Origin: Prionailurus viverrinus
Taxonomy: Eukaryota
DNA length: 64,000 nt
Reading direction: 5' to 3'
Assembly: GCF_022837055.1 (NCBI RefSeq)
Contig: NC_062576.1
Span: forward strand, 18,222,144-18,286,143
Shown: in pieces, positions 16,967 through 47,800 of the stretch
Layout of the letters: every line of letters starts with the position of its first letter
Numbering within the stretch: the stretch's first letter is position 1
Made by a program: the position numbers and the translations under genes
Notes under the pieces: generated by a model
What the model saw: only the letters and a program-made list of their open reading frames with translations
What the model was told of the DNA's origin: nothing
Database searches by the model: none

Positions 16967-17044
16967 ACCACAGCCTTGCCCTGGGCCGGGCACTGCAGTG
17001 GGGCTGTGAGAACTACCTTACCACCAACCCCACCTACAGGGTTC

Positions 17045-17050
17045 AATAAA
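17045..17050 (+). terminator. ZG16: AATAAA polyadenylation signal of ZG16 copy 1, about 80 nt after the stop
   Basis: GGGTTCAATAAAAATAATAATAAAAGG lies downstream of the stop codon and is conserved in the paralogue. Confidence 0.6.
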
Positions 17051-25820: not shown

Positions 25821-25929
25821 GAGAAAAGATGAAACAAAAAACACAAATAAATAAATAAAGGCCAAAAGCAACAAGGACTAGAAAGGACCAGAGAACACCA
25901 GCAGACACTCCAACTCCACAAACAACATA

Positions 25930-28900
25930 ATGGCAATAAATTCATATCTTTCAGTACTCACTCTAAATGTCAATGGACTAAATGCTCCAATCAAAAGACA
26001 CAGGGTAACAGAATGGATTAAGAAAACAAGATCCATCTATATGCTGCTTACAAGAGACCCACTTTAGACCTAAAGATACCTTCAGATTGAAAGTAAGGGG
26101 ATGGAGAGCCATGTATCATGCTAACGGTCAACAAAAGAAAGCCGGAGTAGCCATACTTATATCAGACAATCTAGACTTTAAAATAAAGACTGTATCAACA
26201 GATGAAGAAGGGCATTATATCATACATAAGGGGTCTATCCACCAAGAAGACCTAACAATTGTAAACATTTATGTGCCAAATGTGTGAGCACACAAATATA
26301 TAAATCAATTAATCACAAACATAAAGGGCCTCATTGATTGCAATACCATAATAGTAGGAGACTTCAACACCCCACTCACAGCAATGGACAGATCACCTAA
26401 TCAAAAAATCAACCAGGAAACAATAGCTTTGAATGACACACTGGACCAGATGGATATAACAGATATATTCAGAACATTTCATCCTAAAGCAGTGGAATAT
26501 ACATTCTTCTCCAGTGCACATGTAACGTTCTCCAGAATAGACCACATGCTGGGACACAAATCAGCCCTCAACAAGTACAAAAAGATTGAGATTATACTGT
26601 GCATATTTTCAGGCCACAACTCTATGAAACTCGAAATCAACCACAAGAAAACATGTGGAAGGGTAACAAATACTTGGAGACTAAACAATATCCTACTAAA
26701 GAATGAATGGGCTAAGCAAGAAGTTAAAGAAGAAATTAAAAAGTTCATGGAAGCCAATGAAAATGATAACACCACAACCCAAAACCTCTGGGATGGAGGA
26801 AAGGTGGTCATAAGAGAAAGTATATCCAGGCTTTCCTAAAGAAGGAAGAAAGATCTCAGATACATAACCTAACCTTGCACCTTAAGGAGCTGGAAAAAGA
26901 ACAGCAAATAAAAACCACAACCAGAAGAAGACAGGAAATAATAAAGATTAGAGCAGAAATAAATGCTATTGAAACTAAAACAAAAAACAAAACAAAAAAA
27001 CCAGTAGAACCGATCAATGAAACCAGAAGCTGGTTCTTTGAAAGAATTTAAAAAATTGATAAACCACTAGCCAGTTGGATCAAAAAGAAAAAGGAAAGGA
27101 CCCAAATAAATAAAATCAAGAATGAAAGAGGAGAGATCACAACCAACACAGCAGAAATAAAAACAATAATAAGAGAATATTATGAACAATTATATACCAA
27201 TAAAATGGGAAACCTGGAAGAAATGGACAAATTCCTAGAAACATATACACTACCCAAACTGAAACAGGAAGAAATAGAAATTTGAACAGACTCATGACCA
27301 GAAAAAAAAAAAACGGAATTAGAAATAAAAAATGTCCCAAAACACAAGAGTCCAGGGCCAGATGGCTTTCCAGGGGAATTCTACCAAACATTTAAAGAAG
27401 AGTTAAGACCTATTCTCTTGAAGCTGTTCCAAAAAGATAGAAATGGAAGGACAACTTCCAAACTCTTTCTATGAAGCCAGCACTACCTTGCTTCCAAAAC
27501 CAAAGACCCCACTAAAAAGGAGAGCTACAGACCAATTTCCCTGATGAACATGGATGAAAAAATCCTCAACAAGATACTAGCCAACCAGATCCAACAATAC
27601 ATTAAGAGAATTATTCACCACAACCAAGTGGGATTTGTACCTGGGATGCAGGGCTGGTTCAGTATCCACAAAACAATTAATGTGATGCATCACATCAATA
27701 AAATAAAGGACAAGAACCACATGATCCTCTCAATAGATGCAGAGAAAGCATTTGAAAAAATACAGCATCTTTTCTTGATAAAACCGTCAAGAAAGTAGGG
27801 ATAGAAGATCATAAAAGCCATACATGAAAGACCCACCACTAATATCATCCTCAATGGGGAAAAACTGAGAGCTTTCCCCCTCTAAGGTCAGGAACATGAC
27901 AGGGATGTCCACTCTCACCACTGTTATTTAACATAGTATTGGAAGTCCTAGCTTCAGCAATCAGGCAACACAAAGGAATAAAAGGCATCCAAATCAGCAA
28001 GGAGGTAGTCAAACTTTCACTCTTCACACATGATATGATACTCTATATGGAAAACCCAAAAGATTCCACCTAAAAACTGCTGGAACTGATTCATGAATTC
28101 AGCAAAGTTGCAGGATAGAAAGTCAATGCACAGAAATCAGTTGCATTCCTATACACCAACAATGAAGCAACAGAAAAATAAATCAAGGAAACAATCCCAT
28201 TTATAATTGCACCAAAAGCCATAAAATACCTAGGAATAAGTCTAACCAAAGAGGTGAAAAATCTATACACTGAAAATTATAGAAAGCTTATGAAAGAAAT
28301 TGAAGAAGACACAAAAAATGGAAAAAGATTCCAAGCTCCTGAATAGGAAGAACAAATATTGTTAAAATGTTGATACTACCAAAGCAATCTACATATTCAA
28401 TGCAATCCCTATCAAAATAACACCAGCATTCTTCACAGAGCTAGAACAAACAATCCTAAACTTGTATGGAACCAGAAAAGACCCCGAATAGCCAAAACAA
28501 TCTGGAAAAAGAAAACCAAAGCAGGAGGTATTACAATCCTGGACTTCAAGCTATACTACAAAGCTGTAATCATAAAGACAGTATGGTACTGGCACAAGAA
28601 CAGACACTCAGATCAATGGAACAGAATAGAGAACCCAGACATGGACCCACAAACGTATGGCCAACTAATCTTTGACAAAGCAGGAAAGAATATCCAATGG
28701 AATAAAGACAGTCTCTCTAGCAAGTGGTGCTGGGAAAACTGGACAGAAAAAAGAGCCTGGACCACTTTCTTTCTTACACCATACACAAAAACAAACTCAA
28801 AATGGATGAAAGACCTAAATGTAAGACAGGAAGCCATCAAAATCCTCGAGGAGAAAGCAGGCAAAAACTTCTTTGATCTTGGCCGCAGCAACTTCTTATT

Positions 28901-29650
28901 CAACACGTCTCCAGAGGCAAAGGAAACAAAAGCAAAAATGAACTATTGGGACCTCATCAAAATAAAAAGCTTCTGCACGGCGAAGGAAACAATCAGCAAA
29001 ACTAAAAGGCAACCGACAAATGGGAGAAGATGTTTGCAAACGACAAAGCTGATAAAGGGTTAGTATCCAAAATCTATAAAGAACTTATCAAACTCAACAC
29101 CCAAAAAACAAGTAATCCAGTGAAGAAATGGGCAAAAGACATGAATAGACACTTCTCCAAAGAAGACATCCAGACGGCTAACAGACACATGACAAAATGC
29201 TCCACATCACTCATCATCAGGGAAATACAAATCAAAAACACAATGAGATATCACCTTACACCTGTCAGAATGGCTAACATTAACAATTCCGGCAACAACA
29301 GATGATGGCGAGGATGCAGAGAAAGAGGAACTCTTTTGCATTGCTGGTGGGAATGTGAGCTGGTGCAGACACACTGGAAAACTGTATGGAGGTTTTTTTC
29401 CTCAAAAAACTAAAAATAGAACTACCCTACAACCCAGCAATTGCACTACTAAGTATTTATCCAAGGGATACAGGGATGCTGTTTTGAAGGGACACACGCA
29501 CCCTGATGTTTATAGCAGCACTATCGACAATAGCCAAAGCATGGAAAGACACCAAATGTCCATGGATGGATGGATGTGGTATATATATACAATGGATTAT
29601 TCCTCAGCAATCAAAAAGAATGAAATCTTGCCATCTACAACTACATAGAT
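25930..29650 (+). pseudogene. L1 ORF2 remnant (endonuclease, reverse transcriptase and C-terminal domain) with multiple stops and frameshifts
   Basis: MAINSYLSVLTLNVNGLNAPIKRHRVTEWIKK then a stop. Later fragments include ...KVRGWRAMYHANGQQKKAGVAILISDNLDFK... and an RT piece ...[43 protein letters not shown]... across several ORF-track pieces. Confidence 0.85.
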
Positions 29651-31442
29651 GGAACTAGAGGGTTATTATGCTAAGCGAAATTAGTCAGAGAAAGACAAAT
29701 ATCATATGACTTCACTCATATGAGGACTTTAAGACCCAGAACAGATGAACATAAGGGAAGGGAAGCAAAAATAACATAAGAACAGGTAGGGGAACAAAAC
29801 ATGAGACTCTTAAATATGGAGAACAGAGGGTTACTGGAAGGGTGGTGGGAGGGGACATGGGCTAAATGGGTAAGGGTCATTAAGGTATCTGCTCCTGAAA
29901 TCTTCGGATGTACATTAAAAACAACAAAACAAAACAAAAACTTCCTTTCTCTGTGTGTTTCATTTGGATAATTTCTGTGGCTATGCCTTCAGCTTCACTA
30001 ATCTTTTCTTCTGCGATGTCTCATCTACTGTTGATTCCATTCAGTGTAGTTTTCATCTCTGACACTGTAATTTTCTGTATTTTTTTAAGTAATCTCGACA
30101 CCCAACGTGGGGCTCAAACTCACAACCCCAAGAGCAAGAGTTGTGTGCTCTACAGACTGAGCCAGCCAAGTGTCCTTGACATTGGAATTTTCGTTTCTTT
30201 CTTATATGTCCATGTCTCTATTTAACTTTTTAAAAACATATGGAATATCATTAGAGTAGCTGTTTAATGTCCTTTTCTGCTCCCTCTAGCGTTTGTATAA
30301 GTGCTGGGTTGGTTTCAATTGATTGATGATTCTCCTCATTCTGCGTCATGCATAATCTGTGGCTGATTGGCCAGCGTTGTGAGTTTTACCTTGCCGAGTG
30401 CCAGATACTTTGGTAATCTGTGTGATTTGTTAGGCAGGTGCATAGTAGTGCTCAGCTTGGGGCTGATTATTCCCCACTACTAAGTGAAACCCTTCCTGAA
30501 CACTCTGCCCTCCACTTTGTCACATTGCTAGTCGGGCTGGTGCGAAAAGGCCCTGAGCACAGCTGCCTGCAGAGATGGCTCTCGCCCTGGTGTCCTCAAA
30601 GGACAAATCTCACTTGTTTTCCTTTCTCTCTGGGATTGCGAGGCATGTTACTGCCTTTCATTGCTTGGTGTCCACTGTTTTGAAAACCGTTGTATCGTGT
30701 GTTTTGTCTGGTTTTGTTGCAGTGGTGGTGGCAGTTTCTGGCGGGAAGGTAAAACTGGTCCCTGTGACTCCACCTTGAGGAGAAGCAGGGATCTTGGTGT
30801 GTGTGTTTCTAAGAGCTCTCAGGTGATCCAGGGTGCAGCCAGGTGAGAGCCACTTTACAGACCTGTTTTCTCTGCTTGAAATGTTTTTTTCTCAGTCAAA
30901 TAGAATCTTTGATTATCTCCTCTCCTCCATTTTCTTGGTGCTCTCTGGAACTTCTGTTAGATTAATATGGAATACATTGGCCCTCCATCTCTTAACTTTT
31001 CTTTCATACTTTCCATTTCGTTGTCATTTTGTTCTACATCCTGAGAGATTTTTAAACTTTTCGTCTCATACCTTCCTTTGATTAGCTTTTTCTTTTTTCT
31101 TTTTTAACATAAGTAGCCTTCATGCCAAGGATGGAGCCCAACGCGGAGCTTGACCTCACACAGGTGACACTTGGCGATGTTTGGAGACATCTTTGGTTGT
31201 AACATCTATGGGGTTAGTGAATAGAGACCAGAGAGGCTGTGAAATATCCTACAGCATGCAGGAAAGTCTCCCCCACCAAGAATTACCTGGGTCAGATGTC
31301 AATACTGTGAAGGTGAGGAAACCCTAGTTTAAGACCATTTGGGAGCAGGCTGCCACAACTCACACCACCAAAGGCCAAGGCAAGGAGGGATCCTCCATAC
31401 CCACTTCAGGAGACTTCCTGGGCACGTATTCAAGTTTGTTTA

Positions 31443-32055: not shown

Positions 32056-32268
32056 GGGGCACCTGGGTGGCGCAGTCGGTTAAGCGTCCGACTTCAGCCA
32101 GGTCACGATCTCGCGGTCCGTGAGTTCGAGCCCCGCATCGGGCTCTGGGCTGATGGCTCAGAGCCTGGAGCCTGCTTCCGATTCTGTGTCTCCCTCTCTC
32201 TCTGCCCCTCCCCCGTTCATGCTCTGTCTCTCTCTGTCTCAAAAATAAAGAAAACATTAAAAAAAAAA
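32056..32268 (+). mobile_element. Young CAN-SINE with a perfect 15-bp TSD (AATTAGTCATTCTTC at 32041-32055 and about 32267-32281); absent from the paralogous site in copy A (about 4665)
   Basis: CpG-intact sequence GGGGCACCTGGGTGGCGCAGTCGGTTAAGCGTCCGACTTCAGCCAGGTCACGATCTCGCGGTCCGTGAGTTCGAGCCCCGCATCGGG... Copy A reads TTTTAATCAGTGATCCCTTAAAAAAACAAAGCACTAAGGGCACCTGG without the element. Confidence 0.9.
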
Positions 32269-32299
32269 TTAGTCATTCTTCAAAAAAAAAAAACCACTC

Positions 32300-32965
32300 A
32301 GGGCATCTGGCTGGCCTAGTCGGTAGAGCCTGTGACTCTTATTCTCAGGGTTGTGAGTTCAAGCCTCATGCTGGGTGTGGAACCTACTAAAATAAAATTT
32401 TAATTTAAAATTTAAACAAAACACTAGAAGGGTAAACATTATTAAAACCAGGAAGATCTGACATGATCTAGAATCAAAATGAGATGTTTTGATTCTTAAC
32501 TATCTCTTATCACTTAAAAAAATAGCTTAACATTTTTGGAGGGTGCCTGGGTGGCTCAGTTGGTTAGGCATCCAACTCTTGATTTTGGCTCAGGTCATGA
32601 TCTCATGGTTCATGAACCCCGTATTGGGCTTCATGACAACAACATGGAGCCTGCTTGGGATGCCTTCCTTCACTTCTGCTTAGATCGTCCCTGTCCAATC
32701 TAGCCACTTGTATACCTTAACACTTCTCTGCAGCCAAAGCTCACAGGCCCCATCAGAAGATAAAGGGACCTGGGGTACCTGGGTGGCTTAGTCGCTTGAG
32801 CGTCTGACTTTGGCTCAGGTCGTGATCTCACACTTCGTGAGTTTGAGCCCCGCATCAGGCTCCTCACTGACAGTGTGAAGACTGCTTGGAATTCTCTCTC
32901 TCTGCCCCTCCCCACTTGTTTTCCCTCTCTCTCTCTCTCTCAAAATAAATAAATAAACTTAAAAA
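32300..32965 (+). mobile_element. Three SINEs (about 32300-32410 short type, 32540-32690, 32770-32965), paralogous to 4697-5396
   Basis: Canonical heads. The copies are collinear with copy A SINEs. Confidence 0.85.
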
Positions 32966-34154
32966 ACGAATAAGTAAAAAAAGAAGGTAAGGGGACCAGA
33001 ACGATCTCAAGGAAGCTAAGTATGTGTAGGGGCAACTTCCCACATGGCCACTTGTGAATGGCACATGGGTCCCTTTTCTCTGCCATGATGCCACTTGGAA
33101 AGTCACTGAGGTCCATTCTATACTGAGGCTTTCTGTAGCCAGCATCTGACCCCACACCCTGTGATACATGGCTGCCCACCAGATGTTCCCAGGAGAAAGG
33201 AGGGCCCAAGGGGCTGCCACATCTTTTCCCAATTCCTACACGAAATGGGCCTGCCCGTACGAAGGTTCTTAGTCTGATTCTGGTGGAGATGGGTGGTCTC
33301 AAGAAAATGTTAAGCTTTATCTCCTCCACAACATACCTGGCCAGGATGGAGCCTCTCCTTAGACGATGAGAAACAGAAGAACTTCCTCGGAGCTCGCCTT
33401 GCATCAGGCAGTGTTCTGGAACTTTACTTCTGTTAAGTACATCACAACCACAGCAACCTGAGGAGGTAGGCAAAATTATTGCCTTTTTGTTTGTGTATGT
33501 GTGTGTTTTCAGATGAGAACAGAAGCAGAGAGAAGTGATATAACTTTCCCCAGGGACCCAGCTTCTGAGTCCTGCCCCGTCTGTGCGCCTCTCAAACACT
33601 CCAACCTGCGTCTGTCTTCCTGTGCTTGTAGAACGTGCCAAGTGCAAGAGCAGGTGACTGTTGGAGCCTCAGTCATATATGAAGGAAATGAAATCAGCTC
33701 ATACTTTCAGCTGAATTGTTCCTGACACAAAGCAAGAATGACCGTGTCCTGGTGGAATGACCTCACCTCATTCCCATTTGATACTGTTATATCAATATTT
33801 GATGTTATATTGTGTTATGTTCTGGAGAATGCTCTTTGTGAGGAGGAAAACAAATAGAGGAAACAAAGGAAAAAATAAACAAAGCAAGTTTTGCAGTTGC
33901 ATTACAATTGATCAAGCCTTGCGGTAAGAGATGTGGAGGCTGAAGGCAAAAATGATAGAGGTTAGGGGCACCTGGCTGGCTCAGTCTGTACAGCATGTGA
34001 CTCTGATCTCCGGGTTGTGAGGTTGAGCCCCATGTAGGATTAGAGATTACTTAACATTCAGATCTCAAAAAAAACAACAACCACACACAAAGGCTAAAAA
34101 AAAGCTACCATGTAATCATAGCTCAATAAACAGAAATTAAAACCAGGTTCCCAA

Positions 34155-34314
34155 GGCACCCAGGTGGCTCAGTTGGTTAAGCAGCTGACTTCGGCTCAGG
34201 TAATGATCTCACAGTTCATGGGTTCAAGCTCCACATTGGGCTCTGTGCTCACAGCTCAGAGCCTGGAGCGTGCTTTGGATTCTGTGGAACCCTCTCTCTC
34301 TGCCCCTCCTCCAC

Positions 34315-34359
<45 letters not shown>

Positions 34360-34925
34360 AATAAAGAAATAAACATTAAAAAAATTCTTGTGTCAAGTTG
34401 TATGATGCATATACAAAGCTCTCCAGGATCTGAACTAAGCTAAACCATAAAAATAAAGCTAACTGTAAATGAGAAAGAAAGCCCATGCTCCCTCATCAAC
34501 CTTATCTGAAAGAAATGAAAAAGAAAGACCATATTTTTTGAGAATTGAAGAGAGAAAAAAATAAATGTTAACTCAGTATTATATGTGCCAGAGCTGTGTC
34601 AGGGGCTTGACACAAATTGGTTAGACTCATTATCTCCTATCACAGATGAACAAACTGAAGTTCGAGGATCATGGAGGCAGGGCATGAACCAAGCTTTACG
34701 ACATGTCTCTTGCTGGGGGTTCCTGGGTGGCTCAGTCAGTTAAGCGTCCGACTTTGGCTCAGGTCATGACCTGGTGGTCAGTGAGTTAGAGCCCTACGTC
34801 GGGCTCTGTGCTGACTGCTCAGAGCCTGGAGCCTGCTTTGGATTCTCTCTCTCTCTGCCCCACCCCGTCCCTGCTCACCCTCTGTCTCTCTCTCTCAAAA
34901 ATGAATAAACATTAAAAAAAATTTA
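34155..34925 (+). mobile_element. Two CAN-SINEs (about 34155-34385 with a (CT)n tail; about 34720-34925), paralogous to 11290-12095
   Basis: CCAGGTGGCTCAGTTGGTTAAGCAGCTGACTTCGGCTCAGG... and GGGGTTCCTGGGTGGCTCAGTCAGTTAAGCGTCCGACTTTGGCTCAGG... Confidence 0.85.
34319..34356. repeat. (CT)n microsatellite in a SINE tail
   Basis: TCTCTCTCTCTCTCTCTCTCTCTCTCTCTCTCTCTCTC. Confidence 0.95.
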
Positions 34926-35729
34926 AAGACATGTCTCTTACTAAGGCACCATTCTATGCATGAATTCTTGGCAGGTTGCTATAGGTTTCTGACTTTAAGA
35001 AATGATTAACACATTTCGCAATATATACATATGTCGAATCAGCATGTTGTAATCCCTGAAACTAATATAATGTTACGTGTCAATTCCATGTCAAAAAATA
35101 AAATAAAATAAAAAGATTATCAACATATTCTTCCATACTTGAGTCTGGGTCTCAGGCGCTGCTCTAATTATTACCCTAAAGGTGTCCCAACCCATTTCTG
35201 GCCTGGCAGTTTTGAACTGTGTTGACATATAAAAAATCGTACCCTTTGATAGAGGTAGAGTTTATTTTTCTCAAGGATTTTTTTTTTAAAGAGCAGTTCA
35301 CAATAGAAAAGAACATTTTATATTGTGAGCCAGTTACGCGTAGGATAGAGTATTTGACTGAAACGCTACCTCAGGAAATAGTATTTAGCCTTGTTACATG
35401 CGATGCTCTTACTTTCTCTATTTCATTCTAAAATATGTTGGTTTGGGGGCACCTGGGTGGCTCAGGTGGGAAAGCATGAGATTCTTGTTGTAGGGCTTGT
35501 GGGTTCGAGCCCCACGTTGGGTAGAGAGCTTACTAAAGAAAATAAACTTAAAAAAATACGTTGTTTTTGAGCTGTTAAAGTGATTTCATGGTCCACTAGT
35601 GAGTTAAGACCCACAATCTGAAGAACTCTGTCCTTGAGGATTTTGGTTGATCTCGAGACCATTTGCTTCTCATGTTCCAAATGCAGAAATACAGGCTCTA
35701 AGAAATAGTGACTTTTTATTTTTTAGCGC

Positions 35730-35935
35730 TTATTTATGTATTTATGAGAGTTTGGGAGAGAGAGCCCACACAAGTGAGGGAGGGGCAGAGAAAGAGAGGG
35801 AGACACAGAATCCGAAGCAGGCTCCAGGCTCCGATCTGTCAGCACAGAGCCCGACATGGGGCTCGAACTGTGAGATTATGGCCTGAATCGAAAACAGATG
35901 CTTAACCAACCAAGCCACCCAGGCACCCTAGTGAC
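35730..35935 (-). mobile_element. CAN-SINE, antisense; left flank of the 3.7 kb copy-B-specific block
   Basis: ...GAATCCGAAGCAGGCTCCAGGCTCCGATCTGTCAGCACAGAGCCCGACATGGGGCTCGAACTGTGAG...CAAGCCACCCAGGCACCC. Confidence 0.85.
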
Positions 35936-36944
35936 TTTTTAAAATTCACATGGCTAATGAGTGTTGGAATGGAGGACCTTAACCCACAATTCTGTCTTTA
36001 GGTACAGTATGCTACCGAACAGGGTTTCACCAGAAGGTTCAGAAATAAGAAACAAGAAAACCCAAATTCAAGCCTGCCAGAAGAGAGACACTGGCCTGAA
36101 AAGACAAAGGAGGAGTATTTAATGGAATTCTCACCGCAGACAAGGCATGTGACGGTCATTTATGGGGCACCTGTAATGTGCCAGATGGGAAGCAGGAGCC
36201 TGGAATTCAGAGCTGGACAAGACAGGCCTTCCGCCTTAGAATGGGCTTGGGGTTTGGTGGAGAAGGCTTCTGTGTACACAGATAAATTACAGCGCAGGGT
36301 AATCAGAGCTGAGCTGGGGAGGTAGCAAACACAGTTGGAGGCCAGAAAAAGGAATTCTGTCTGAAGTGGAGGGGCTGGAGGGAGACCCCTATGATAGAAG
36401 CCCTAGGGAGGAGTGCAGGGGGTGGTGCGTGCAGGGGGTAGTGGGGGGAGGGGTAGGGGCTGAATGTCTTAAGGGTAGAAGATGGGCAGGTGAGCAGGAC
36501 AGGAGAACATTTAGGCAGCCAGAGTGGCAGGAGCAAACAGCTGGCTAGTGTAGGGACTGGCATGTGGGTTACGAGGGACAGGAGGCAAGGTGTGGTGTCC
36601 CGATCAGATGGGGGCCCCCAAATGTGCAGTGACCACCTGGTGGAGGCTGGGGGCTTGGGCCGTGAAAGAATTCACCTGAGGCAGAACAAAGGAGATAGAA
36701 GCTTATGGAATACACAGCAAGGTTGCAGAGGAGAGGCTGTCTGAGAAGAGGCAGTGTGGGGGATGGGGGACTATTTTGGAAGGGGGAAGGTGAGGACTTA
36801 TGGGGATATATAGAATTCTCCCCTTTGGTGGTGACTGTGCCTGGTTGTAAGCAGCCCATTGGTCAGTTAGAGCCTATAACTGATGCATGGAGGTGCCCCC
36901 GACCCATGGGCCTGTCTGTATTCAGCCAGGGGGTCGCCGTGGCC

Positions 36945-37650
36945 CTTTTCTTTTTTTTTTTTTTAAAGAGTTTTTTACTTCATTATTTTTTTAATTTTAT
37001 GTTCTTAAATTTACATCCAAATTATTTAGCCTATGGTGCAACAATGATTTCAGGAGTAGATTCCTTAGTGCCCCTTACCCATGTAGCCCATCCCCCCTCC
37101 CACACTCCCACCAGTAACCCTCTGTTTGTTCTCCATTTTAAAGTCTCTTCTGTTTTGTCCGCCTCCCTGTTTTTATATTATTTTTGCTTCCCTTCCCTTG
37201 TGTTCATCTGTTTTGTATTTTAATATCCTCGTATGAGCGAAGTCATATGATTTTTGTCTTTCTCTAATTTCGCTTAGCATAATACCCTCCAGTTCCATCC
37301 ACGTAGCTGCAAATGGCAAGATTTCATTCTTTTTTGATTGCCGAGTGATACTCCGTTGTATATATATATACACCACATCTTTATCCATTCATCCATCAAT
37401 GGACATTTGGGCTCTTTCCATACTTTGGCTATTGTCGATGGTGCTGCTATAAACATGGGGCTGCAAGTGTCCCTTCGAAACAGCACATGAAACAGTGGAT
37501 AAACACCTAGTAGTGCAGTTGCTGGGTCGTAGGGTACTTCTATTTTTAATTTTTTGAGGAGCCTCCATACTTTTTCCGGAGTGGCTACACCAGCTTGCAT
37601 CCCATCGTTGTGGCCCTTTTCTACCTCCTGTCACCCAAGCCTGTTTGCCT
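36945..37650 (-). mobile_element. 5'-truncated L1 3'-end fragment (ORF2 C-terminus plus 3'UTR), antisense
   Basis: Poly-T at 36950-36965. Minus-strand ORF 37389..37634 translates to ...CSHSGKSMEAPQKIKNRSTLRPSNCTTRCLS...STIDNSQSMERAQMSIDG, which parallels the + strand L1 C-terminus at 29355-29648. Confidence 0.8.
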
Positions 37651-38144
37651 ACAAGTGGCCTCTACAGCAGGGAGTGGAGGGACCCTCTTTGCAGCTTAGT
37701 GAGGTCACTTCTCTCTCAAGACTTTACTTTCTTCACGGGAACCATGAAGGGTGAACAGAAAAGCACTGTTCACATTTGCTTTTGTGGTAAAACCCTTTGT
37801 TCAAATGAAACCACCATCTACCCAAGGCGTAAATGAGGAGACAGAGAATATTTTTTTCTTAACAGGAAAGAGATCTGCTATCATTTGGAAATACATTTTG
37901 AAAAATCAGTGATGGGAGTCAAGGGGCAGATTCTCCCCCCTGGGGTGTGAATTTGCACCAGGATTTAAGAGGCTTTGTCTGAGAGAGGAAATAGTGCTCT
38001 GAGCAGGGGCCCCTTGAGACAAGGGTTGGGGGGTATGAGAGCTCACACTGTTCCTGCCTCCTGAGGTGGGCTCCCCCTCCCCCTTCCCCTCCACACACCC
38101 TCATTCCCCACCCTGTCCATTCTCCACTTTTAAGAGTGGAACGA

Positions 38145-38369
38145 GGGGCGCCTGGGTAGCGCAGTCGGTTAAGCATCCGACTTCAGCCAGGTCACGATCT
38201 CGCGGTCCGTGAGTTCGAGCCCCGCGTCGGGCTCTGGGCTGATGGCTCAGAGCCTGGAGCCTGTTTCCGATTCTGTGTCTCCCTCTCTCTGCCCCTCCCC
38301 CGTTCATGCTCTGTCTCTCTCTGTCTCAAAAATAAATAAACGTTAAAAAAAATAAATAAAAAAAAAAAA
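38145..38369 (+). mobile_element. Young CAN-SINE (CpG-intact), flanked by an AAGAGTGGA direct repeat; near-identical to the copies at 32056 and 60631
   Basis: GGGGCGCCTGGGTAGCGCAGTCGGTTAAGCATCCGACTTCAGCCAGGTCACGATCTCGCGGTCCGTGAGTTCGAGCCCCGCGTCGGGCTCTGGGCTGATGGCTCAGAGCCTGGAGCCTGTTTCCGATTCTG... Confidence 0.85.
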
Positions 38370-39424
38370 GAGTGGAGAAACCACTCGGTGGCTTCCCTCA
38401 CCTTCAGGAGGAATCCAAACTCCTGACCACAGCCTCCCAGGCCCTGTACTACCTGCCCGGCGGCTGCTGCCCACACCTCCCCTCCCGCTGGCAGCCACAC
38501 TTCCCAGCAGCCACCCTGCCCTCCCGCACACTGTTCCGCACACTTCCTGCTCAGGGTTTGCGTACCGTTCCCTCACCAGGTCCAGTCTTCTCCCAAACGT
38601 CTGTAGTCTCTCCATCACTTTGGTGAGGTCTTCACAAATGTTACCCGTGGAGAGGGGGGCCTCCCAGGCAGAGAGACAGCTTTCCCAGCCCTTCTCCTGG
38701 TTCACTCTGCCTCATTTCCTCCTGGCCTGGCCCATGGGAACGAGTTGTTCAATTGTCCGACCCCCCACCCTGCAGTGAAAGCTCCAGCACTACGATTTGA
38801 CCCTTCCTCTGTGACTGTCTGTCCAGCATCTAGGACGGTTCCTCCAACATACAGATGCTGCATAAATGTGCTGAGTGAGTCGCTTTGCCAAGGGGCAGGG
38901 AAGACAGCAAGAGAATGAGTGTCAGCTGCCCTGCCATAGCAGAAAGCTTGGGGAGGTTTTGGACTTCGCAGCCTTGGGACTGGGCAGGGATGACCTTCAC
39001 TGCCTGTAGGACTGGGGAAGGTCGGCCCCCAGGGGACACATGGGCAAAATGTGACAAGTTCAAATGGGAGCAATGGAACTGGACCTGATGGCATACCAAC
39101 ATTAGCTGCACAGTGGTCTAGCTGGTCTCTGGGACCCACAGGCGATGAGCCCTGAGACCCCTGCCACTGGAATAAAGTCCTCTCTTTACACTCTGGAGAG
39201 GAGATGGAGGGCCTGCTGGGGGGAACCAGGGACCAGTCTATGGGCATCGGGGAGACTCTGACTCTCTGCATAGGTGGGGCCAGTGCATCAGAGTGAACCT
39301 ATGACAAGTGTGATGGTCTCCCCCTGAGGGTCCCAGATGTGTCATGTATGGAAATATGAGGGTATTTTCCTAAGGCATTCACTGCAGACCTCTCTGGGCT
39401 ACCATATTTTTTTTCTTAATCTTT

Positions 39425-39610
39425 TATTTATGTTTAGAGAGAGAGAGAGAGAGAGAGAGAGTGAGTGGGGAAGGGGCGGGGGGTGGAAACAGAATCTGAA
39501 GTAGGCTCCAGGCTCTGAGCCATCAGCAGAGCCCGATGCAGCTCTCGAACCCACGAGTGGTGAGATCACTATTGGTCCAATTCTTAACCAACTCAGTCAC
39601 CTGGATGCCC
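39425..39610 (-). mobile_element. CAN-SINE, antisense; right flank of the copy-B-specific block and start of the ZG16 duplicon
   Basis: (GA)n...GAATCTGAAGTAGGCTCCAGGCTCTGAGCCATCAGCAGAGCCCGATGCAGCTCTCGAACCCACGAGTGGTGAGATCAC...CTGGATGCCCC. Confidence 0.85.
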
Positions 39611-41182
39611 CTGAGCTGCCATCTTTGATATCCAGTGTTTGGTTCCATCCTGTGGGATATACTCCTCATAAGGAAGAGGAAAGACAGACAATAGTGAGAG
39701 AAGACAGAGGAAAGATTTAGAGAGAGAGCTTGGAGGAGGAGAAGAGACAAAGAGAAGAGGCAGAAGGAAAAAGGGATGGAGACAGTGAATACAAAGAACC
39801 CTTAGAGCAGGAGATGATGGGGAAAGATCAAGACAAACGGAAAGAGAGAAGTAGGAAAGAAAGAAAACCAGAGAGGACAAGAGAGACAAAACAAAACAGA
39901 TGAATGAGGAAGTTATCTCACCAGGACATGCTTGTTTTGAACTTGAAGCAGAGATCAGACAATGCAACCCTGGCTGCCCTCTTTGCTCTCGGAATCTCCA
40001 GACCAAGAGCCCTGTCCTATTTCTGGCTCCTTAGGTTGGGGTTCCCTGGCTTTCCTGGGAGGAGTCCTCAGTCCTAGATGGTCTATGAGGGGTGGATATT
40101 CTGTTTGTCCAGCTACTAGTCATTAATCACCAAGGCTAATGACTCCAGCTCTTCCCTGGGCTCCATCCATCTCTCTGCTTGGGAGGGCCCGCTGACTCAG
40201 AGGGTCAAAGAGCCAGTCCTAAAGGGGTCAGGAAGTAGGACTCAGGAGTCCGTCTAGAGACTCCGGTGGAACAGAAGGGCCTCGGAAGAGAAGAAATCTA
40301 TGACACGAATCTAAGGCCTATGGGAAGGAGCTGTTGCCCCGTGTGGGCTTTATCCTCCAGAAGATTCAGTCATGGCTCCCAGGAGCCCCGAGGGCCTTGA
40401 GACCAGAATTTCCCCCAAGGGAGGAACCATGTACCGTTACTTCCTCAGCGTCTCACATGCCTATTGGCCTGACTGCCTGTCTCCCAGGCGGGAGATTGAC
40501 AGGTGTTCGTTGTCCACCAGCAGCAACACGTTACCCTTCTCAGAAAAGTTTTGTAAACAGTCTGGCAGATTGAGGATGGATAGATGGGGGGGAGGGGGGG
40601 GCAGAAAAAGGCAAGTACAGCAAAGTATTAACCATGGTAGAATCTATGTGGTGTGTATATGAGTGTTCACTGTATAATTCTTTAAATATTTCCTATGTTT
40701 GAATTTGTTTTTTTCATATAAAATAACCGGGATGAGAAGGAAAAAAATTGTCTGGAAAATAGTAGACACTCCTAAGTACAGAGTGTTGGGTGTATCATCC
40801 CTTCCCAGAAGAATCTAGATTTCAAATGCAGGACAGTGAGGACAAGGTTTCTCCTGAAAGATGACAGATTGCAGGTAGGAGCACCTGCAGAACACCCAAA
40901 TAGGGGGGTGACAACCTTAGACTACATCCAGAAGCACTTAGCTACTTTGCCCACCAAAAGCTGCTGGCCCTTGGGTTGGTGACCTTTTCTCAAGTTTATT
41001 CTGCCCATCCTGAGATCTGGGCCTTGGCCCAGATTGGACCCCACCCTGCCACATGAAACTCTTGGGGGGAGAGCAGGATATGGTATTCCAGACCTTGCCT
41101 GACCACTGACCCTAGAGGCTGAGCATGTTTGCTCAGGTGGTGAGGCCACACGATAAAGAGAAGGCAGAGGGCTTGGACCTGG

Positions 41183-41190
41183 TATAAAAG
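41183..41190 (+). promoter_or_regulatory. TATA box (TATAAAAG) of ZG16 copy 2
   Basis: Same TATAAAAG...CCAG|GTGAGGGG arrangement as copy 1; the non-coding first exon is about 41214-41234. Confidence 0.55.
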
Positions 41191-42163
41191 ACCTGGAAGT
41201 TTCCAGGTGATTACTTTGCACCTGGAACTGCCAGGTGAGGGGTGACAGAGGCCTGGGCTAAGGGGTGAAAGGGATGATTGGATTTGAGTTTCGGGGGAAT
41301 TCAAGCAGCGGTGGACAGCAGCCTGCCTGGAGTGAGCGGCAGGGGAGACCTGTGTGGCAGGTACCTGGGGCATCTGAGGGAGGTGCAAAGTATCTGGGTC
41401 TCAGAGGAAGGACGGGAGACACCTGGGATGCTCGGGGTATCGATACAGCCAGATTTGTGTTAGTGGAGAAAGAATTATGACAAATAGACCAGGCATCTGG
41501 AATCTGGTATCTTGAGCTGTGGTCCAAACTCGTTGTGCAGTTTCTCAACTGTTCCGATGCTGGTATTGGCACAGTCTCGTCTATAATCACCCTCACTGCC
41601 TGGGTGACACAGAGACGCACCCCTAAAATGCTCCTTTCCTTCTGATTTGAGACCCAGCTAAAGCTAGGAATTTAAACTCTGCCCCAGAGGTCCCCCAAGC
41701 CAGCCCCATGTGTCACAGGCAGGTTGCAGTTAGGTTTTGCTCAGAATCCTGGTTTGGTAAACTCAACCATCTCTATGGTTTGGAGATGGCCTCCACTTCT
41801 TTGAAACTCTTTTCCTGCTTTGTGCCAGGAGGGACCAGGACTTACATGGGTTGGTCCAGACAGAGGCTTAGGACTGACCTTCTGACTCAGGATGGTCAAC
41901 AAGGGGGTCAACAAGGGGGTCGACTACCTCGAGACCAGGGAGGACAGAGGGGTTAAGGACACCGTACCTGCCAGGAGCAGGACTAGAGACTAGGGGCAAT
42001 TCTTTCTGAGCCCAAGACTGGGTCAATTAGGTCTCAGTTGAGGGACAAAGAGGGCCGAGTCTCAATTGGAGATCTAACCCAGGGAAGCCTGGGTAAATGA
42101 AGTCCAAAGGAAACAGGGTGAATGAACCTTGACGTTCTCCTTTCTTTCCCTTCCAGCCCCAGA

Positions 42164-42218
42164 ATGTTGACCATTGCTCTTCTTGCCCTTGTCTGTGCAT
42201 CAGCCTCAGCCAATGCCA
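42164..42218 (+). CDS. ZG16 paralogue (copy 2) coding exon 1: MLTIALLALVCASASANA plus 1 nt; donor GTAAGT at 42219
   Basis: ATG at 42164 preceded by acceptor CCCTTCCAG at 42148-42156. It is 2 aa different from copy 1. Confidence 0.8.
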
Positions 42219-42402
42219 GTAAGTGAGAGGCCAGGAGCCCAGTATTAATGTCATGGGAAGACAGCTTCCTGCTCTGCCGGTGGCCAAGGCTTGCAGGGGC
42301 TGGCTTGGGGTGGTGGGCGTCGAGTTGTGGGAGGTGTAGGAGTGGTGAGGAGGGACTGGAGCTCTTGAGCTCTCTCCTTCTGACGCCTACTGTCCCCTCC
42401 AG

Positions 42403-42535
42403 TTCAGGCTAGGTCCTCCTCCTACAATGGAGAGTATGGAGGCGATGGAGGTGAGCAATTCTCCCATTCTGGTTACCAGCTGGAGGGCCCCATCACTGCC
42501 ATCCGGGTCCGCATCGACAACAACTACATCATAGG
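42403..42535 (+). CDS. ZG16 paralogue coding exon 2: (I)QARSSSYNGEYGGDGGEQFSHSGYQLEGPITAIRVRIDNNYII(G)
   Basis: Same splice signals as copy 1. It is 133 nt with about 12 nt differences, 8 of them non-synonymous. These include G to D inside the Gly-rich GG loop and RVNRYY to RIDNNY. Confidence 0.8.
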
Positions 42536-43207
42536 GTAAGATTCTTTGTGTGTCTGTGGTTTGGGGGTCATCTCCGATCCTACCACACTGGAAAGTTCTC
42601 AGTCACTTTGGGTCACATCTGTTTCAGTCAACAAGTCCCAGGGACAACTTGGGATGTGAAAGGTATCAGGAGGCTGGGGTCTGAGGCCGGTGCTGCTACA
42701 GCCCTACAGTCCCCAGCGTGCACGTCTTGGGCAAATCTGTAGCACAGCCACTGAGGCGCTGGGAAGCTGGCTACTTTGGCCCCACCTGAGGTGTAGGTCC
42801 CCTCGGGCATCCTCCATCTTGGCTGACACCTCTCCCCAAAACATGTATCCTTCTGATCCTGGGGCAACAGAGTCTCTTCCCTCATGAAAGCCATCCAGAA
42901 AGGCCCATCTGCTTCTTCCACGTAGGGGTTGGGGGCACAACCGGAACCTAGATTTCAAAGTGAAGCTCTACCACTGTCTGGGGGGCTCCGGCCAAGTTAC
43001 TTTTCCTCTCTGAGCCTATCTGTTGGCAAAAGGAGTTGAAGTTCACAGTGGGACCTCAAGGGCTCCCTCATCCCTCACACACCTTGGGACTGGCAGGGGA
43101 CCTGTCATCTCTGCCACCAGTTTGCAGGTCTCTCGGCTTGTAGGCCAAGAGGTCCTGAATTCCAGTCACCCTGCTCAGTCTTCCCTCCCTCACCAGCCCC
43201 CACCCAG

Positions 43208-43511
43208 CCTCCAGGTGCGCTATGGCAAGGTATGGAGCGACTATGTGGGTGGCACCCAGGGAGACCTGGAGGAGATTTTCCTGCACCCCGGGGAGTCAGT
43301 GATCCAGGTGTCTGGCAAGTACGACTACTACCTGAGGAAGCTCGTCTTCGTGACTGACAAGGGCCGGTACCTGCCTTTTGGGACAGACATAGGCAGGAGT
43401 TTCAGTGCTGTCCCCTTGTACCACAACACCGTACTACGATTCATTAGTGGTCGCGCTGGCACCCTCATCAATGCCATAAGCCTGCACTGGGACTTATACC
43501 GCAGGTATTGA
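43208..43511 (+). CDS. ZG16 paralogue coding exon 3, ending ...HWDLYRRY with stop TGA at 43509-43511; four codons shorter than copy 1 and lacking both C-terminal Cys
   Basis: ORF track 43023..43511. Translation LQVRYGKVWSDYVGGTQGDLEEIFLHPGESVIQVSGKYDYYLRKLVFVTDKGRYLPFGTDIGRSFSAVPLYHNTVLRFISGRAGTLINAISLHWDLYRRY. The splice acceptor is intact. The premature stop arises by substitution (GACTGTGGC to TATTGAACC), not a frameshift. Confidence 0.8.
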
Positions 43512-43577
43512 ACCAGTTGCTGAACCGCTGCAGCCGGCTGTGAGAACCGCCTTACCACTACCCCACCTACAGGGTTC

Positions 43578-43583
43578 AATAAA
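43578..43583 (+). terminator. AATAAA polyadenylation signal of ZG16 copy 2
   Basis: GGGTTCAATAAAAATAATAATAAAAGG is conserved with copy 1. Confidence 0.55.
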
Positions 43584-44728
43584 AATAATAATAAAAGGAC
43601 ATAGCTGACGCTGGAGTGTATGTGGGTGTGTGCAGCTGGGACCCGCCTCCTGACTCTGGCTGTGGATGTGTGAATGTCCTTTCTGGCTATCTATAGATGT
43701 CTTTCTGGTGAAGAGTGGGAGGGAGAGAGAGAGGTGTAAAGTCTTGGGCTTTTCTTCCTGGTTTATGGAGAAGAGATAAGATTCTGGATTGCTCCAACTC
43801 TTTTTTTCAAGGATAGCTCCTGAGACTGTTTACCCAAACTGGAGTTAAGCCTGAGGGTGCAGCCTCGCTTCCTCCCCAAACCCCAGATGTCCCAGTCTCT
43901 AGGCCTTGTCTCCCCTTGAGATAGTGTTTCCCCACCAAAAGGCTGTCACCTGGCTCTCTTGGCATTAACCACTTGCTGTCTCTGGGTGGCCTGGGCCATT
44001 TTCTTTCATGCTTTCCCAGAATCCACCTGTCTCCCGAAGCTTGGCCTAAGTTTTTGTTGAGAACTCTGTCTCTTACTCCAGCCTAGTCCCTCCCCACCTT
44101 TGCCCATAAGCACTGATGCTCCCTGATTAGCTTAGCTCGCTCAGAATTGGGCTTCTTTCCCTAGGAAGCTGCCACCTCCTCAACAGCTTCTATTCTGCCA
44201 ATTCCATCCTCAAAAAAAGGGCATTCCAAGAGGGATAGATGTCCATGGTGGGTTTCCATGAACGTCGGGGGTTGGTTACCATTCAGGGGAAGCAACAGAC
44301 TGGCTGGATAGATTCAGCAAGGATACAGAGTCACTTTGGAAATAATTCTTGGGACTCTAGTGCCCAGTCCTAAAATTACCACAGTGTTTTGTTTTTGCCT
44401 TTTGGTGGTGGTGGTTGGGGATGAGGGAAGTCACTCATTGCTCCCCAAAGACTTATTCACATTATGGTGAATGCCAGAGTCACATTTCTTCCCAATTAGA
44501 CAAAGATAACAATTATGTACATGTAGTTTTAGAAAGGAATATTAACATTACAGAAACAAACTCATGCCTAGATACTTTTTAGAACAATTCCTTTATTTCT
44601 CTCAAAGAAACATGGGATGGAGTATCATGTCAGAGTAATTTGTTTTGAGATATAAAGTACATAAAATTCACCCATTTATTTAGTTATTTAAGTTTATTTG
44701 AGAGAGAGCATGAGCGGCACAGGGATAG

Positions 44729-44749
44729 AGAGAGGGAGGGAGGGAGAGA

Positions 44750-44797
<48 letters not shown>

Positions 44798-44806
44798 CCC
44801 AAGCAG
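44729..44806. repeat. (GGGAGA)n/(GA)n expansion within an antisense SINE; not expanded in the paralogous SINE at about 18230
   Basis: GAGAGAGGGAGGGAGGGAGAGAGAGGGAGAGAGAGAGAGAGAG...(GA)n, about 75 bp, versus GGGGCAAAGAGAAGAGAGACAGAGACAGAGAGAATCC in copy A. Confidence 0.9.
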
Positions 44807-47800
44807 CCTCCACACTCAGTGCGGAGCACAAAGCGGGGCTCGATCTCACAAAGTGTGAGATCATAACCTCAGCTGAAATCCAGAGTCAGCCAGCCATCCG
44901 GGTGCCCCAATATTTGACCTTTTAAAGCGTGCCATTTCCGTCGTTTTTAGTATTCACGGATTGTGCAACCATGACCACTAATGCCAGAATTTCGTCATCA
45001 GCTCAGAAAGAAATCCCATCCCCATTAAGCAGTCGCTCCCCATTCCTCTCCCCCAGCCCCTCGTAACCACCCATCTACTTTCTGTCTCTATGGATTTCCC
45101 TGTTCCAGGCATTTCATGTAGATGGAATCGTCCAGTAGTGTGGTCTTTTGTGTCTGGCTTCTCCCATTTAGCGTATTTTCAAGGTTCATCCACGTGGTAG
45201 CACGTGTCAGGACTTCGTTCCCTTGTGCGGCTGAATCTGACACATCAGATACCTGGTCAACTTCAGGATCAGCTTTGCACCAGCGGGTCTCACCCTCGGC
45301 CAGTGAAGTCACTGGCACCTGACAGGCAGCTGCCGCAGAAGAGGACGAAGTCATGGGATTCCCGGCTTTTGTGTAGTTGACATATTAGGCTTTTGTAAAA
45401 GATTTTATGTAAAGAAAATTTTCCTTTCCTTATAAAGTTCTAAAACTACTAAATTGAGCTAATCATACGTTTATCAAATGCTCTCTGCTAGGTGCTTGGG
45501 AATACAACGACCACTGAAGATTTCTTTTCCTCTAGTCAAAGGGAAGACTTGGTGAAGGAAGGGGTGTGTGTGTGTGTGAGCGTATGCATGTGCATGTGTG
45601 ATAGGGGCACAGTACTGGGCTATGCAGTATCAGCCTATGCAGAAATATGAACACATTAAAATGACAATTGCACAGTTAAAATGCAAAGTTCTACTGGGTA
45701 AAGATGAAGCCTCATGGAATGGCAGGGACCATGCATGTCATGCTAAACTGTTGAAACTTTATTTTATGGGCTACAAGAAGCCAATGAACCAAGATTTTGC
45801 TCAGGGGATTGGTAAGATTTATACGAAAATCATCTTTCCTTGTATAAGTGGGGAAAATGGATTGAAGGTGAAGCAGGATGAGATAATAGTTAAGAGACTA
45901 GGTCTAGATCAGAAATGATGGATGTCTGAACAAAGGCAGTGATGTGAGGGAAAAAAGAGAGGGAGGAATTTGAGAGATTCGAGGGGGAGGGGAGACTTAG
46001 AAGAACTTGATAAAAGAACCCATGAAGGTGAGTCAAAGAGGAGAGTCTAGAAGAACTATCATGTCTAGTATGGGCAACTGGGAAGAGAGAGATTCTTTCT
46101 AAGATGAGGACTACAGAAGAAGAAATTAGCTTTTGGACCTGTTGCATTTTTAAATAATATTTATTTTGAGAGGGAGGAAGAGAGAGAAAGAGAGCAAGAG
46201 AGTGGAGTAGCAGGGAAGTGAGAGAGAGAGAATCCCAAGCAGGGTCCGTGCCTCTAGTGCAGAGCTTTATGCAAGGCTCGATCTCACAAACCTGAGATCA
46301 TGACCCGAGCCGAAATCAAGAGTCAGACGCTTAACTGACTGAGCCAGACAGCTGCCCCAAGGACCTGTTGCATTTTGACATATCTGTGGCACATCCTGAT
46401 GGAGACCCAACATTACACAGAGGACTATTTAGCAATAAAGGCTCGGATACAGCTTTCAGGTAAGCCTTAGATTCAGGAGTCACAAGCACAGAGACAATGG
46501 ACTTCCAGTGATGGATATGTGGAAGAAGTCACGTAGGAAAACTGTGGGCATATAAAATGAGAAGAAGGCTGGCGTCAGAGGATTGGAGAATACCAAAGAG
46601 GAATTGGTTAGAGAAAAGAGACGGGAGGGGCCGGGGAGGGAACGCACTCAGGGGCAAGAGAGAAATTTCATGGAGCTGTTACTGCCATCTAAGCAAGAAA
46701 AAGAACGACTTGAGATTCTTTGCCTTTGGCAATCAGAAGGTCACGAATAATCCCGAAAGAGCTTCGGGGGATTGGGGGAAGCTGAAACCAGGCTGCAGTT
46801 GGCTAAGGAATGAATGGGAAATGAGGAAATACAGGCAGCAAGACTTGAATATTCCAAGATGTCTGGCTCCAGAAAGCCAGAAAATAGGCTAGTCACAGTT
46901 ATGGGAGATGTAAGGAAAGAGAGATTGGGTTTTTTTCCTAGACAGGGGAGACGTGAGCATGTTTATATGACAAAGAAGGAGTCAGAGGGAGGAAGAGGCT
47001 GAGGATTCAGGAAAGAGGAGGGAACTGATGGAACGAGGTCTCGCAGGAGATTGGGGAGGATGTGTTACGTAGCTGTTGGGGCAGGAAACCTTAAGAAAGA
47101 AGAAAATGAAGATGAGTGAAGGTACAGGTTAGTTTGTAGAGGGAGTGGGTATGGAGCAAACCTTGAGGGAATTAATACCCAACCTTGACTTGTTCGGTTG
47201 CATAAGTAAACCTGCCTGTTGTATGAGTCACATTCTTCCAGAGGAAAACCAGCAGGAGACATACGTACATATATACATAAAGAGTTTTTTTTTTTATGTT
47301 TTTATTTATTTAAATGCTTTATTTTTGTGAGAGAAGGAGAAAGAGCACAAGAGGAGGAGGGGCAGAGAGAGAGAGAGAGAGAGAGGAAGACAGAATCCGA
47401 AGCAGGCTCCAGCTGTCAGCACAGAGCCCACTCAGGGCTTGAACTTGTGAACCGCAACATCATGACGTGAGCTGAAGTCGGACGCTTAACCAACTGAGCC
47501 ACCCAGGTTCCCCTTTAAGATTTTATTTTTATTTATTTATTTACATTTTTAACACTTATTTATTTTGAAAGGGGTGGGGCAGAAAGAGGGAGACAGAATC
47601 CATATCAGGCTGCAGGCTCTGAGCTGTCAGCACAGAGCGGGACTTGGGGCTTGAACTCATGAACCGCGAGATCGTGACCTGAGCAGAAGTTGTACACTTA
47701 GCCACTGAGCCACCCAGGTGCCCTTAAGATTTTATTTTTAAGTCATCTCTACCCCCAGTGTGGAGCTTGAACTCACCACCCCAAGATCAAGAGTTGCCTG

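Follow-up and report, generated by a model that had tools for sequence, protein, structure and literature searches.

The fishing cat (Prionailurus viverrinus) carries two ZG16 genes in tandem, and the second of them, copy 2, stops four codons short of the first and lacks the C-terminal CXXC motif. Here we asked what has become of this second gene, using a stretch of 64,000 nucleotides of contig NC_062576.1 (assembly GCF_022837055.1, positions 18,222,144 to 18,286,143 of the forward strand), hereafter called the window. An earlier note, made from the letters of the window alone, had seen the early stop and offered two readings of it: an early step of pseudogenisation, or a change in what the C-terminal tail does. 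What ZG16 does physiologically, and above all what its conserved redox-active CXXC tail is for, has been described as unresolved (Javitt et al. 2021, PMC9291870). The same study places the tail at the end of the prism opposite the glycan site. It reports that the CXXC, on a flexible segment that could not be built into the model, closes to a redox-active intramolecular disulfide, which QSOX1 or PDI can introduce and thioredoxin reduces. Our computational analysis indicates that copy 2 is probably a retained, relaxed ZG16 lectin paralog that occurs throughout the feliforms and does without the thiol-disulfide tail.

Origin and age of the stop in copy 2

Searches with human ZG16 (tblastn), combined with inspection of the splice sites, placed two complete three-exon genes on the plus strand of the window:

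15607-16966, plus strand: ZG16 copy 1, with coding exons at 15607-15661, 15846-15978 and 16651-16966
16952-16963, plus strand: CXXC codons of copy 1 (TGT GGC AGT TGC), followed by the stop at 16964-16966
42164-42218, plus strand: coding exon 1 of copy 2, with the start codon and the putative signal peptide
42403-42535, plus strand: coding exon 2 of copy 2, the second divergence island (see below), carrying G33D, N57D, R58N and Y59N
43208-43511, plus strand: coding exon 3 of copy 2 including the stop, with an intact acceptor AG
43509-43511, plus strand: derived stop TGA of copy 2, at the position of Cys164 (TGT in copy 1)
43512-43523, plus strand: relic codons ACC AGT TGC and the ancestral stop TGA, in frame but now in the 3' untranslated region (UTR), and the same in the felids and hyaenids examined

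The coding exons of 55, 133 and 304-316 nt reproduce the exon structure of ZG16. GT and AG are present at every intron of both copies, and copy 2 has its ATG and no stop upstream of the TGA at codon 164. The product of copy 1 has 167 amino acids, ends in DVYPSDCGSC and matches RefSeq XP_047694817.1 (ZG16, Prionailurus viverrinus) residue for residue; that of copy 2 has 163 amino acids, ends in DLYRRY and is identical in the same way to XP_047695187.1 (ZG16-like, Prionailurus viverrinus). As predicted RefSeq proteins, both sequences are already known.

The earlier note had compared the last 33 nucleotides of copy 1 with the corresponding part of copy 2 and had attributed the stop to point changes. 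Each of these 33-mers occurs once in the window (copy 1, 16934-16966; copy 2, 43491-43523); they align without gaps and differ at 11 of the 33 positions, six of which fall within 9 nt (CGACTGTGG in copy 1, GTATTGAAC in copy 2), just as the note had counted. Copy 2 has TGA where copy 1 has the TGT of Cys164, both C-terminal cysteines are lost, and the frame upstream is open. Because the alignment is gapless and the old codons and the old stop are still in frame, the stop originated by substitution and not by an indel. The ending CSRC of human ZG16, which the note had given, was confirmed by an alignment with PDB entry 7O3I and by PMC9291870, and the note was also right in taking the species for a felid. 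The six changes in 9 nt do not represent a single mutation burst: the cluster is part of an old island of divergence, in which changes accumulated over tens of millions of years.

To place the stop in time, copy 2 was compared across carnivores. A protein search and a cluster look-up showed that the 163-residue form, ending in Y/H-R-R/G-Y, is annotated in 12 felid species besides the fishing cat (Felis catus, Prionailurus bengalensis, P. iriomotensis, Lynx canadensis, L. rufus, Herpailurus, Leopardus, Panthera uncia, P. tigris, P. pardus, P. leo and Neofelis), some of the models having predicted N-terminal extensions. The 163-residue form of Hyaena and Crocuta ends in DVYPRK, and that of the meerkat ends at the same position in DVCLKN. 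DNA sequences were compared for Leopardus, P. tigris, Felis, cheetah (Acinonyx), Hyaena (two genes), Crocuta and meerkat (Suricata). Codons 164-168 read TGA-ACC-AGT-TGC-TGA in all felid and hyaenid copies examined, and TGA-ATC-AGT-TGT-TGT in the meerkat. The stop-bearing copies also share the derived codons AGT129, GGT144, AGC147, A[CT]C148 and AGG162.

Regional neighbour-joining trees with bootstrap, computed with our own code and resting on 115-133 columns, gave the same picture. In the tree of codons 131-168 all stop-bearing feliform copies grouped together with 99% bootstrap support, and in the exon 2 tree felid copy 2 grouped with the 'up' gene of Hyaena and with Crocuta with 90% support. 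Because the same TGA and relic codons, the further derived codons and these two groupings are shared, the nonsense change arose once, before Felidae, Hyaenidae and Herpestidae split. In general carnivoran phylogeny this split is dated to ~35-40 million years ago, a date that is taken from there and not computed here. The event itself would have been the change of codons 164-165 from TGT GGC to TGA ACC in the common ancestor of cats, hyaenas and mongooses, which would have cut off the four-residue CXXC.

The stop is thus fixed, and neither private nor recent, and no copy 2 ending in DCGSC was found among the species examined. That the TGA is confined to the one animal sequenced, or is an error of sequencing or assembly, has no direct support beyond the fact that the region is hard to assemble (the fishing cat lacks the middle copy of the domestic cat). 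This reading is refuted by the presence of the same TGA and relic codons in independent assemblies of eight other species from three families, and of the stop in RefSeq or UniProt models of the other felids; its probability is negligible. The suggestion of an early step of pseudogenisation is not supported either, given that every feliform copy 2 examined has the same stop and all except that of the cheetah have an open frame. The other suggestion of the note, that the C-terminal tail changed in function, is in keeping with the evidence.

Mosaic divergence between the two copies

Self-BLAST of the window showed that the two genes are located in the units of a tandem segmental duplication, and one segment of copy 2 stands out by its divergence:

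4678-21018, plus strand: upstream unit of the duplication, which holds copy 1
32283-47542, plus strand: downstream unit of the duplication, which holds copy 2
43410-43508, plus strand: codons 131-163 of copy 2, the old divergence island (20 of 99 nt differ from copy 1; synonymous divergence, dS, ~0.75), spanning the sugar-binding loop 146-149 and the remnant tail

The units are 89-93% identical when gaps are included (self-BLAST), with mismatches at 5.7% over the aligned 8 kb, and the downstream unit is orthologous to the copy 2 units of Leopardus and Felis (~96% identity). Divergence between copies 1 and 2 of the fishing cat is distributed unevenly: it amounts to 3.0-4.9% in the introns, 4.7% in the 5' flank, 9.0% in exon 2 and 20% in codons 131-163. 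Codons 131-168 differ at 23 of 114 nt, compared with 29 of 856 nt in the two introns (Fisher p = 1e-9), and exon 2 likewise differs from the introns in its divergence (p = 0.008). When the aligned 8 kb were scanned with a 150-nt sliding window, the end of exon 3 was the highest clean divergence peak, and several other stretches were at 0%. Over ~900 nt (19759-19908 and 20059-20807 versus their downstream counterpart) there is no difference at all between the units, an identity that indicates very recent gene conversion.

Felid and hyaenid introns are ~15% divergent, far above the divergence between paralogs within one cat, and the trees of the introns and the 5' flank grouped the sequences by family without separating the paralogs. 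The simplest reading of these patterns is an old duplication in which the non-coding parts and the first part of exon 3 (exon 3a) would have been homogenised repeatedly by gene conversion with copy 1, while exon 2 and the last part of the coding sequence, with the stop, would have stayed paralog-specific. Going beyond the earlier note, the paralog is old, and the cluster of changes at the stop is an island that escaped gene conversion. Exon 2 and codons 131-163, the two islands left unconverted, coincide in part with the ligand-binding surfaces and the tail. The three-way distances of the 99-nt island fit either order of the duplication and the split of cats and bears.

In Hyaena, both tandem genes (L011 and L012, ~27.7 kb apart) carry a copy-2-type exon 3 with the stop. 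They are 0-2% diverged throughout except in exon 2 (9%), which resembles copy 1 in one gene and copy 2 in the other. It is the upstream gene that has the exon 2 of copy 2 type, the opposite of the order in cats. A CXXC-bearing copy was not seen in the ~49 kb examined.

The encoded lectin, the selection on it and the alternatives

Like canonical ZG16 (ZG16p; human O60844, PDB entries 3APA, 7O3I, 7O4P and 7O88), to whose human form it is 78% identical, copy 2 encodes a putative signal peptide followed by a single Jacalin-type beta-prism, and it has the same three coding exons with the same phases at a locus between C16orf54 and the KIF22 side. The Jacalin-like lectin domain (PF01419) is recognised in residues 28-155 of copy 2 with 69.4 bits (cutoff 22), compared with 75.3 bits for copy 1. 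An AlphaFold2 model of copy 2 has a mean predicted local distance difference test (pLDDT) score of 90.2, with strands up to residue 159 and low confidence only after residue 160. Compared by Foldseek with human ZG16 in 3APA, the model gave a template modelling score (TM-score) of 0.99 and a root-mean-square deviation of 0.5 A over 138 residues; with 7O3I the TM-score was 0.97. The putative signal peptide, residues 1-18 (MLTIALLALVCASASANA), agrees with that of copy 1 at 16 of 18 positions and is close to that of human ZG16; residues 2-21 were modelled as a helix.

Copy 2 departs from canonical ZG16 in its tail and in its ligand surface. The CXXC is removed by the stop at codon 164, the mature protein is free of cysteine, and the conserved Pro161 is replaced; Tyr160 and Pro161 are conserved in ZG16, possibly for an intermolecular interaction (PMC9291870). 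The 23 substitutions relative to copy 1 include G33D, R37Q, N57D, R58N, K102D, S146A and A148T. With respect to canonical ZG16, these change the GG loop (G33D), a heparin residue known from rat (R58N), Lys102 (K102D) and the binding loop (S146A and A148T, and G147S in most felids). The mannose contacts of ZG16 are Gly35, Tyr104, Gly147, Ser148, Leu149 and Asp151 (Kanagawa et al. 2014, PMC4059138), and Lys33, Lys36, Arg37, Arg55 and Arg58 are the heparin-binding residues of the rat protein cited there. The GXXXD mannose motif is incomplete in fishing-cat copy 2, which has Gly35, Tyr104 and Gly147 but Asn151. The same Asn151 (Asp151 in human) is present in both cat copies (16913-16915 and 43470-43472) and in the other carnivore ZG16 sequences examined; the copy 2 of the meerkat has Asp.

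Two other ideas about the ligand surface were tried and rejected. The segment GLHWD was considered as a GXXXD sugar motif, but the numbering of PMC4059138 places the motif at Gly147-Asp151, so that G154S of the fishing cat and D158G of Panthera are not changes of the motif. A less basic copy 2 with altered glycosaminoglycan binding was dismissed in view of the isoelectric points, 8.1 for the fishing cat and 9.1-9.5 for the other copy 2 proteins.

Other ZG16 proteins put the missing tail into perspective. The C-termini of ~150 homologs, which we tabulated, show the CXXC from amphibians to placental mammals with scattered losses, in agreement with PMC9291870. Among the human structures, 7O3I, 7O4P and 7O88 were determined with the tail, and 3APA and related entries without it (residues 21-159). 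The C-terminal disulfide that the earlier note proposed to look for was sought in the solved structures; it cannot be seen there, the tail being disordered. The engineered human ZG16p 21-159, with which the first crystal structures and glycan studies were done, lacks the CXXC like copy 2; it forms beta-prism crystals, and both mannose-type glycans and heparin bind to it. Copy 2, which extends as far as residue 163, holds every structured residue; its binding loops have changed further, and its ligand binding is putative. Some groups, such as Cetartiodactyla, lack the first cysteine only (PMC9291870), and in these, as in copy 2, the CXXC disulfide cannot form. The cetartiodactyl protein, however, is the ortholog of the species, is full length and keeps the last cysteine, Tyr160 and Pro161, gaining His or Tyr and then Glu, whereas in feliforms a paralog lost both cysteines by a stop and the rest of its tail is drifting. 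ZG16B/PAUF (PDB 3AQG) is also a beta-prism lectin paralog, and it can be aligned to cat ZG16 only as far as residue 161, short of the CXXC; at only ~32% identity it is far more distant than the tandem copies are from each other.

Selection on copy 2 was assessed as omega, the ratio of nonsynonymous to synonymous rates (dN/dS), from Nei-Gojobori distances and from parsimony counts on the species tree; the estimates are approximate and the substitution counts small. With Nei-Gojobori distances, omega was 0.04-0.08 for copy 1 orthologs and 0.26-0.44 for copy 2 within felids. Parsimony assigned 14 synonymous and 13 nonsynonymous changes to crown-felid copy 2, which corresponds to an omega of ~0.3 and is below neutral (binomial p = 0.002-0.014), and 43 synonymous and 8 nonsynonymous changes to copy 1. 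Copy 2 thus appears to be relaxed but not neutral. No pseudogene lesion in the domain and no lost start or splice signal was found in the fishing cat, the 12 felid species, the two hyaenids and the meerkat; the cheetah is the exception.

Several observations weigh against retention. Copy 2 evolves far faster than copy 1 (Fisher p = 3e-7), with an omega about six times higher, in the range of 5-10 times that of copy 1. Between felids and hyaenids its omega is 0.57-0.83, or roughly 0.6-0.8, values for which a conservative null gives no significant shortfall from 1. The remnant tail, codons 158-163 (43491-43508), has changed seven times on the felid and hyaenid tree, each time nonsynonymously, and the stub before the stop appears to be unconstrained. 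Gly147 of the sugar motif is replaced by Ser in most felid copy 2 genes. The copy 2 of the cheetah has, besides the shared stop at codon 164, a second one at codon 140 (CGA to TGA at Arg140, a CpG site that corresponds to window 43437-43439; L014, exon 3), which would remove the last beta-strands and the binding loop; it is probably a lineage-specific pseudogene, and copy 2 is dispensable in at least one assembly. These points would fit a slowly decaying, non-functional duplicate in which the loss of the CXXC was the first hit and repeated conversion from copy 1 kept the frame open. The clear conversion tracts, some of them at 0% divergence, provide the means, and with copy 1, which is constrained, as the donor, conversion could bring down the apparent omega as well as mend lesions. 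We nevertheless consider such decay unlikely. The frame, the splice sites and the poly(A) signal have remained intact in the fishing cat, the 12 other felids, the two hyaenids and the meerkat since before the families split, and the unconverted islands, which are beyond patching by copy 1, are open as well, with a felid omega of ~0.4 (p = 0.05). From the synonymous tree length, neutral evolution predicts 3.5-4.3 nonsense changes and ~8-10 frameshifts on the six-taxon tree sampled, and none of either was observed there (P ~0.01-0.03 for nonsense changes alone, ~1e-6 when indels are included). Moreover, conversion should restore the CXXC, which it never did in the feliforms examined; in Hyaena it is the stop-bearing exon 3 that is present in both genes.

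The same changes near the stop might instead reflect a newly acquired role of the C-terminus, for instance as a partner-binding or processing motif, favoured by positive selection. All seven changes in codons 158-163 are nonsynonymous, six changes surround the stop within 9 nt, and the exon islands are more diverged than the introns, as such selection would predict. However, the stubs differ from lineage to lineage (YRRY, YRGY, HRGY, YPRK, CLKN) with no common motif, bears became tail-less through an unrelated frameshift with another ending (GAYPK), and the dS of the island is also very high (~0.75), which argues for age and escape from conversion and not for adaptive bursts. The 15 nonsynonymous sites are too few for a formal test, and we regard a selected new tail as quite improbable. 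Retention of copy 2 as a lectin without a tail accounts best for these data. The truncated gene would have been kept under weaker but real purifying selection, and would encode a complete Jacalin-type beta-prism lectin, predicted to be secreted, whose sugar- and glycosaminoglycan-binding loops appear to have diverged from those of copy 1. Without cysteine, the mature protein would take no part in thiol-disulfide exchange through the tail or in partner interactions that need it. We infer that the protein is made and that, with the tail gone, its lectin binding is no longer coupled to the redox or partner function that the tail provides. Candidate peptides by which copy 2 could be recognised are IDNNYIIGLQVR and the C-terminal LHWDFYR or LHWDLYR.

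Surroundings of the two genes and possible meaning of the tail loss

The surroundings of the two genes are those expected for ZG16. A complete coding exon of C16orf54 (DUF4689, Pfam 406 bits) is present upstream of copy 1 at 1549-2235 on the minus strand, and from ~47.7 kb on the window is collinear with the ZG16-KIF22 interval of the bear (Ursus). Downstream of the coding sequence of copy 2 three further features were recorded:

43531-43532 (approximate), plus strand: junction of a 23-nt deletion in the 3' UTR of copy 2, just after the old stop; found in felids only, absent in hyaenids, and a separate event
43578-43583, plus strand: poly(A) signal (AATAAA) of copy 2, which copy 1 shares at 17045-17050
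43590-43595, plus strand: second AATAAA of copy 2

Flanking repeats are present at 4470-5759 and 32267-33400, and the sequence 5' of the C16orf54 exon belongs to the duplicated unit; one C16orf54 gene model of Leopardus has its annotated start just 5' of copy 2. Between the two ZG16 units are LINE-1 ORF2-like open reading frames of the endonuclease and reverse transcriptase type (25160-29060, plus strand), and an inverted repeat pair is found at 29348-29902 and 37046-37604.

The number of ZG16 genes recorded differs between cat assemblies. The domestic cat has three tandem ZG16 genes, of which A and B both encode 167 residues with CGSC and are followed by the truncated copy, and three ZG16 genes are likewise annotated in the leopard cat. 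The ~23 kb unit that carries B (L013 34645-57916 in Felis catus) is missing from the fishing-cat window, with the breakpoint region at 32282-38142. This difference may be either a real change in copy number by unequal crossing-over or a collapse of one repeat unit in the fishing-cat assembly. In Felis catus, RefSeq isoform X1 (201 residues) of the truncated gene has a modelled start upstream of gene A and a ~50 kb splice into copy 2 (L013 10001-63059), a model that suggests read-through or chimeric transcripts across the array.

A tail-less duplicate of ZG16 is also found in bears. Like copy 2, the ursid ZG16-like gene is a tandem duplicate with an open Jacalin domain and no CXXC. It encodes 162 residues ending in GAYPK, and here the CXXC was lost by a 1-nt insertion and not by a nonsense change (giant panda XP_034526028 and related models; Ursus americanus A0A452STI6). 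Unlike copy 2, it goes back to an independent duplication or has been fully homogenised. In every partition of the neighbour-joining analysis the ursid ZG16-like gene grouped with ursid ZG16, which favours a loss of the CXXC independent of that in feliforms, with complete homogenisation as the alternative. We had considered the ursid 162-residue paralog as an ortholog of feliform copy 2 because of a shared GRAST segment; this was rejected, as it groups with bear ZG16 and has a different mutation. In the panda, the upstream ZG16-like gene is truncated by the 1-nt insertion (GAYPK*; L005 ~11365-11375), and the downstream ZG16 reads GAC TGA GGC AGC TGC (PSD*GSC), with a TGA at codon 164 (L005 ~13075-13080). 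Neither panda copy encodes the CXXC in this gappy assembly, and the apparent spacing of 137 bp between the two genes is an artefact of a 100-N assembly gap.

Together, the bear, panda and Hyaena cases support a tail that would be separable from the lectin and dispensable in a second copy. As a tentative and rather doubtful extension, carnivores may repeatedly make one ZG16 duplicate tail-less, by nonsense change in feliforms and by frameshift in bears, with selection shielding the 3' end and the ligand patch of exon 2 from conversion. If this were true, the CXXC tail would have a separable function, for example covalent or redox-gated tethering to a partner in mucus or granules. A free ZG16 that cannot be tethered would then be useful beside a tethered one, and the paralogs would be natural separation-of-function alleles for the tail.

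Our literature search found no description of the carnivore ZG16 duplication, the age of the paralog, the shared stop or the conversion mosaic; only the loss of the first cysteine in some species has been reported (PMC9291870). The practical weight of the finding is modest, the gene models being already in RefSeq and the function of copy 2 being only predicted. For annotation, it means that the 163-residue ZG16-like models should not be flagged as truncated or of low quality. As an example of mosaic concerted evolution the locus is a clean one, with homogenised introns beside functionally diverged exon segments that stay distinct. Cats, hyaenas and mongooses possess two types of ZG16, one full-length and one old and tail-less, which are adjacent to each other in cats, and this offers a natural comparison for the role of the tail, which could make use of expression sites, partners, glycan specificity and mixed disulfides with components of mucus or granules.

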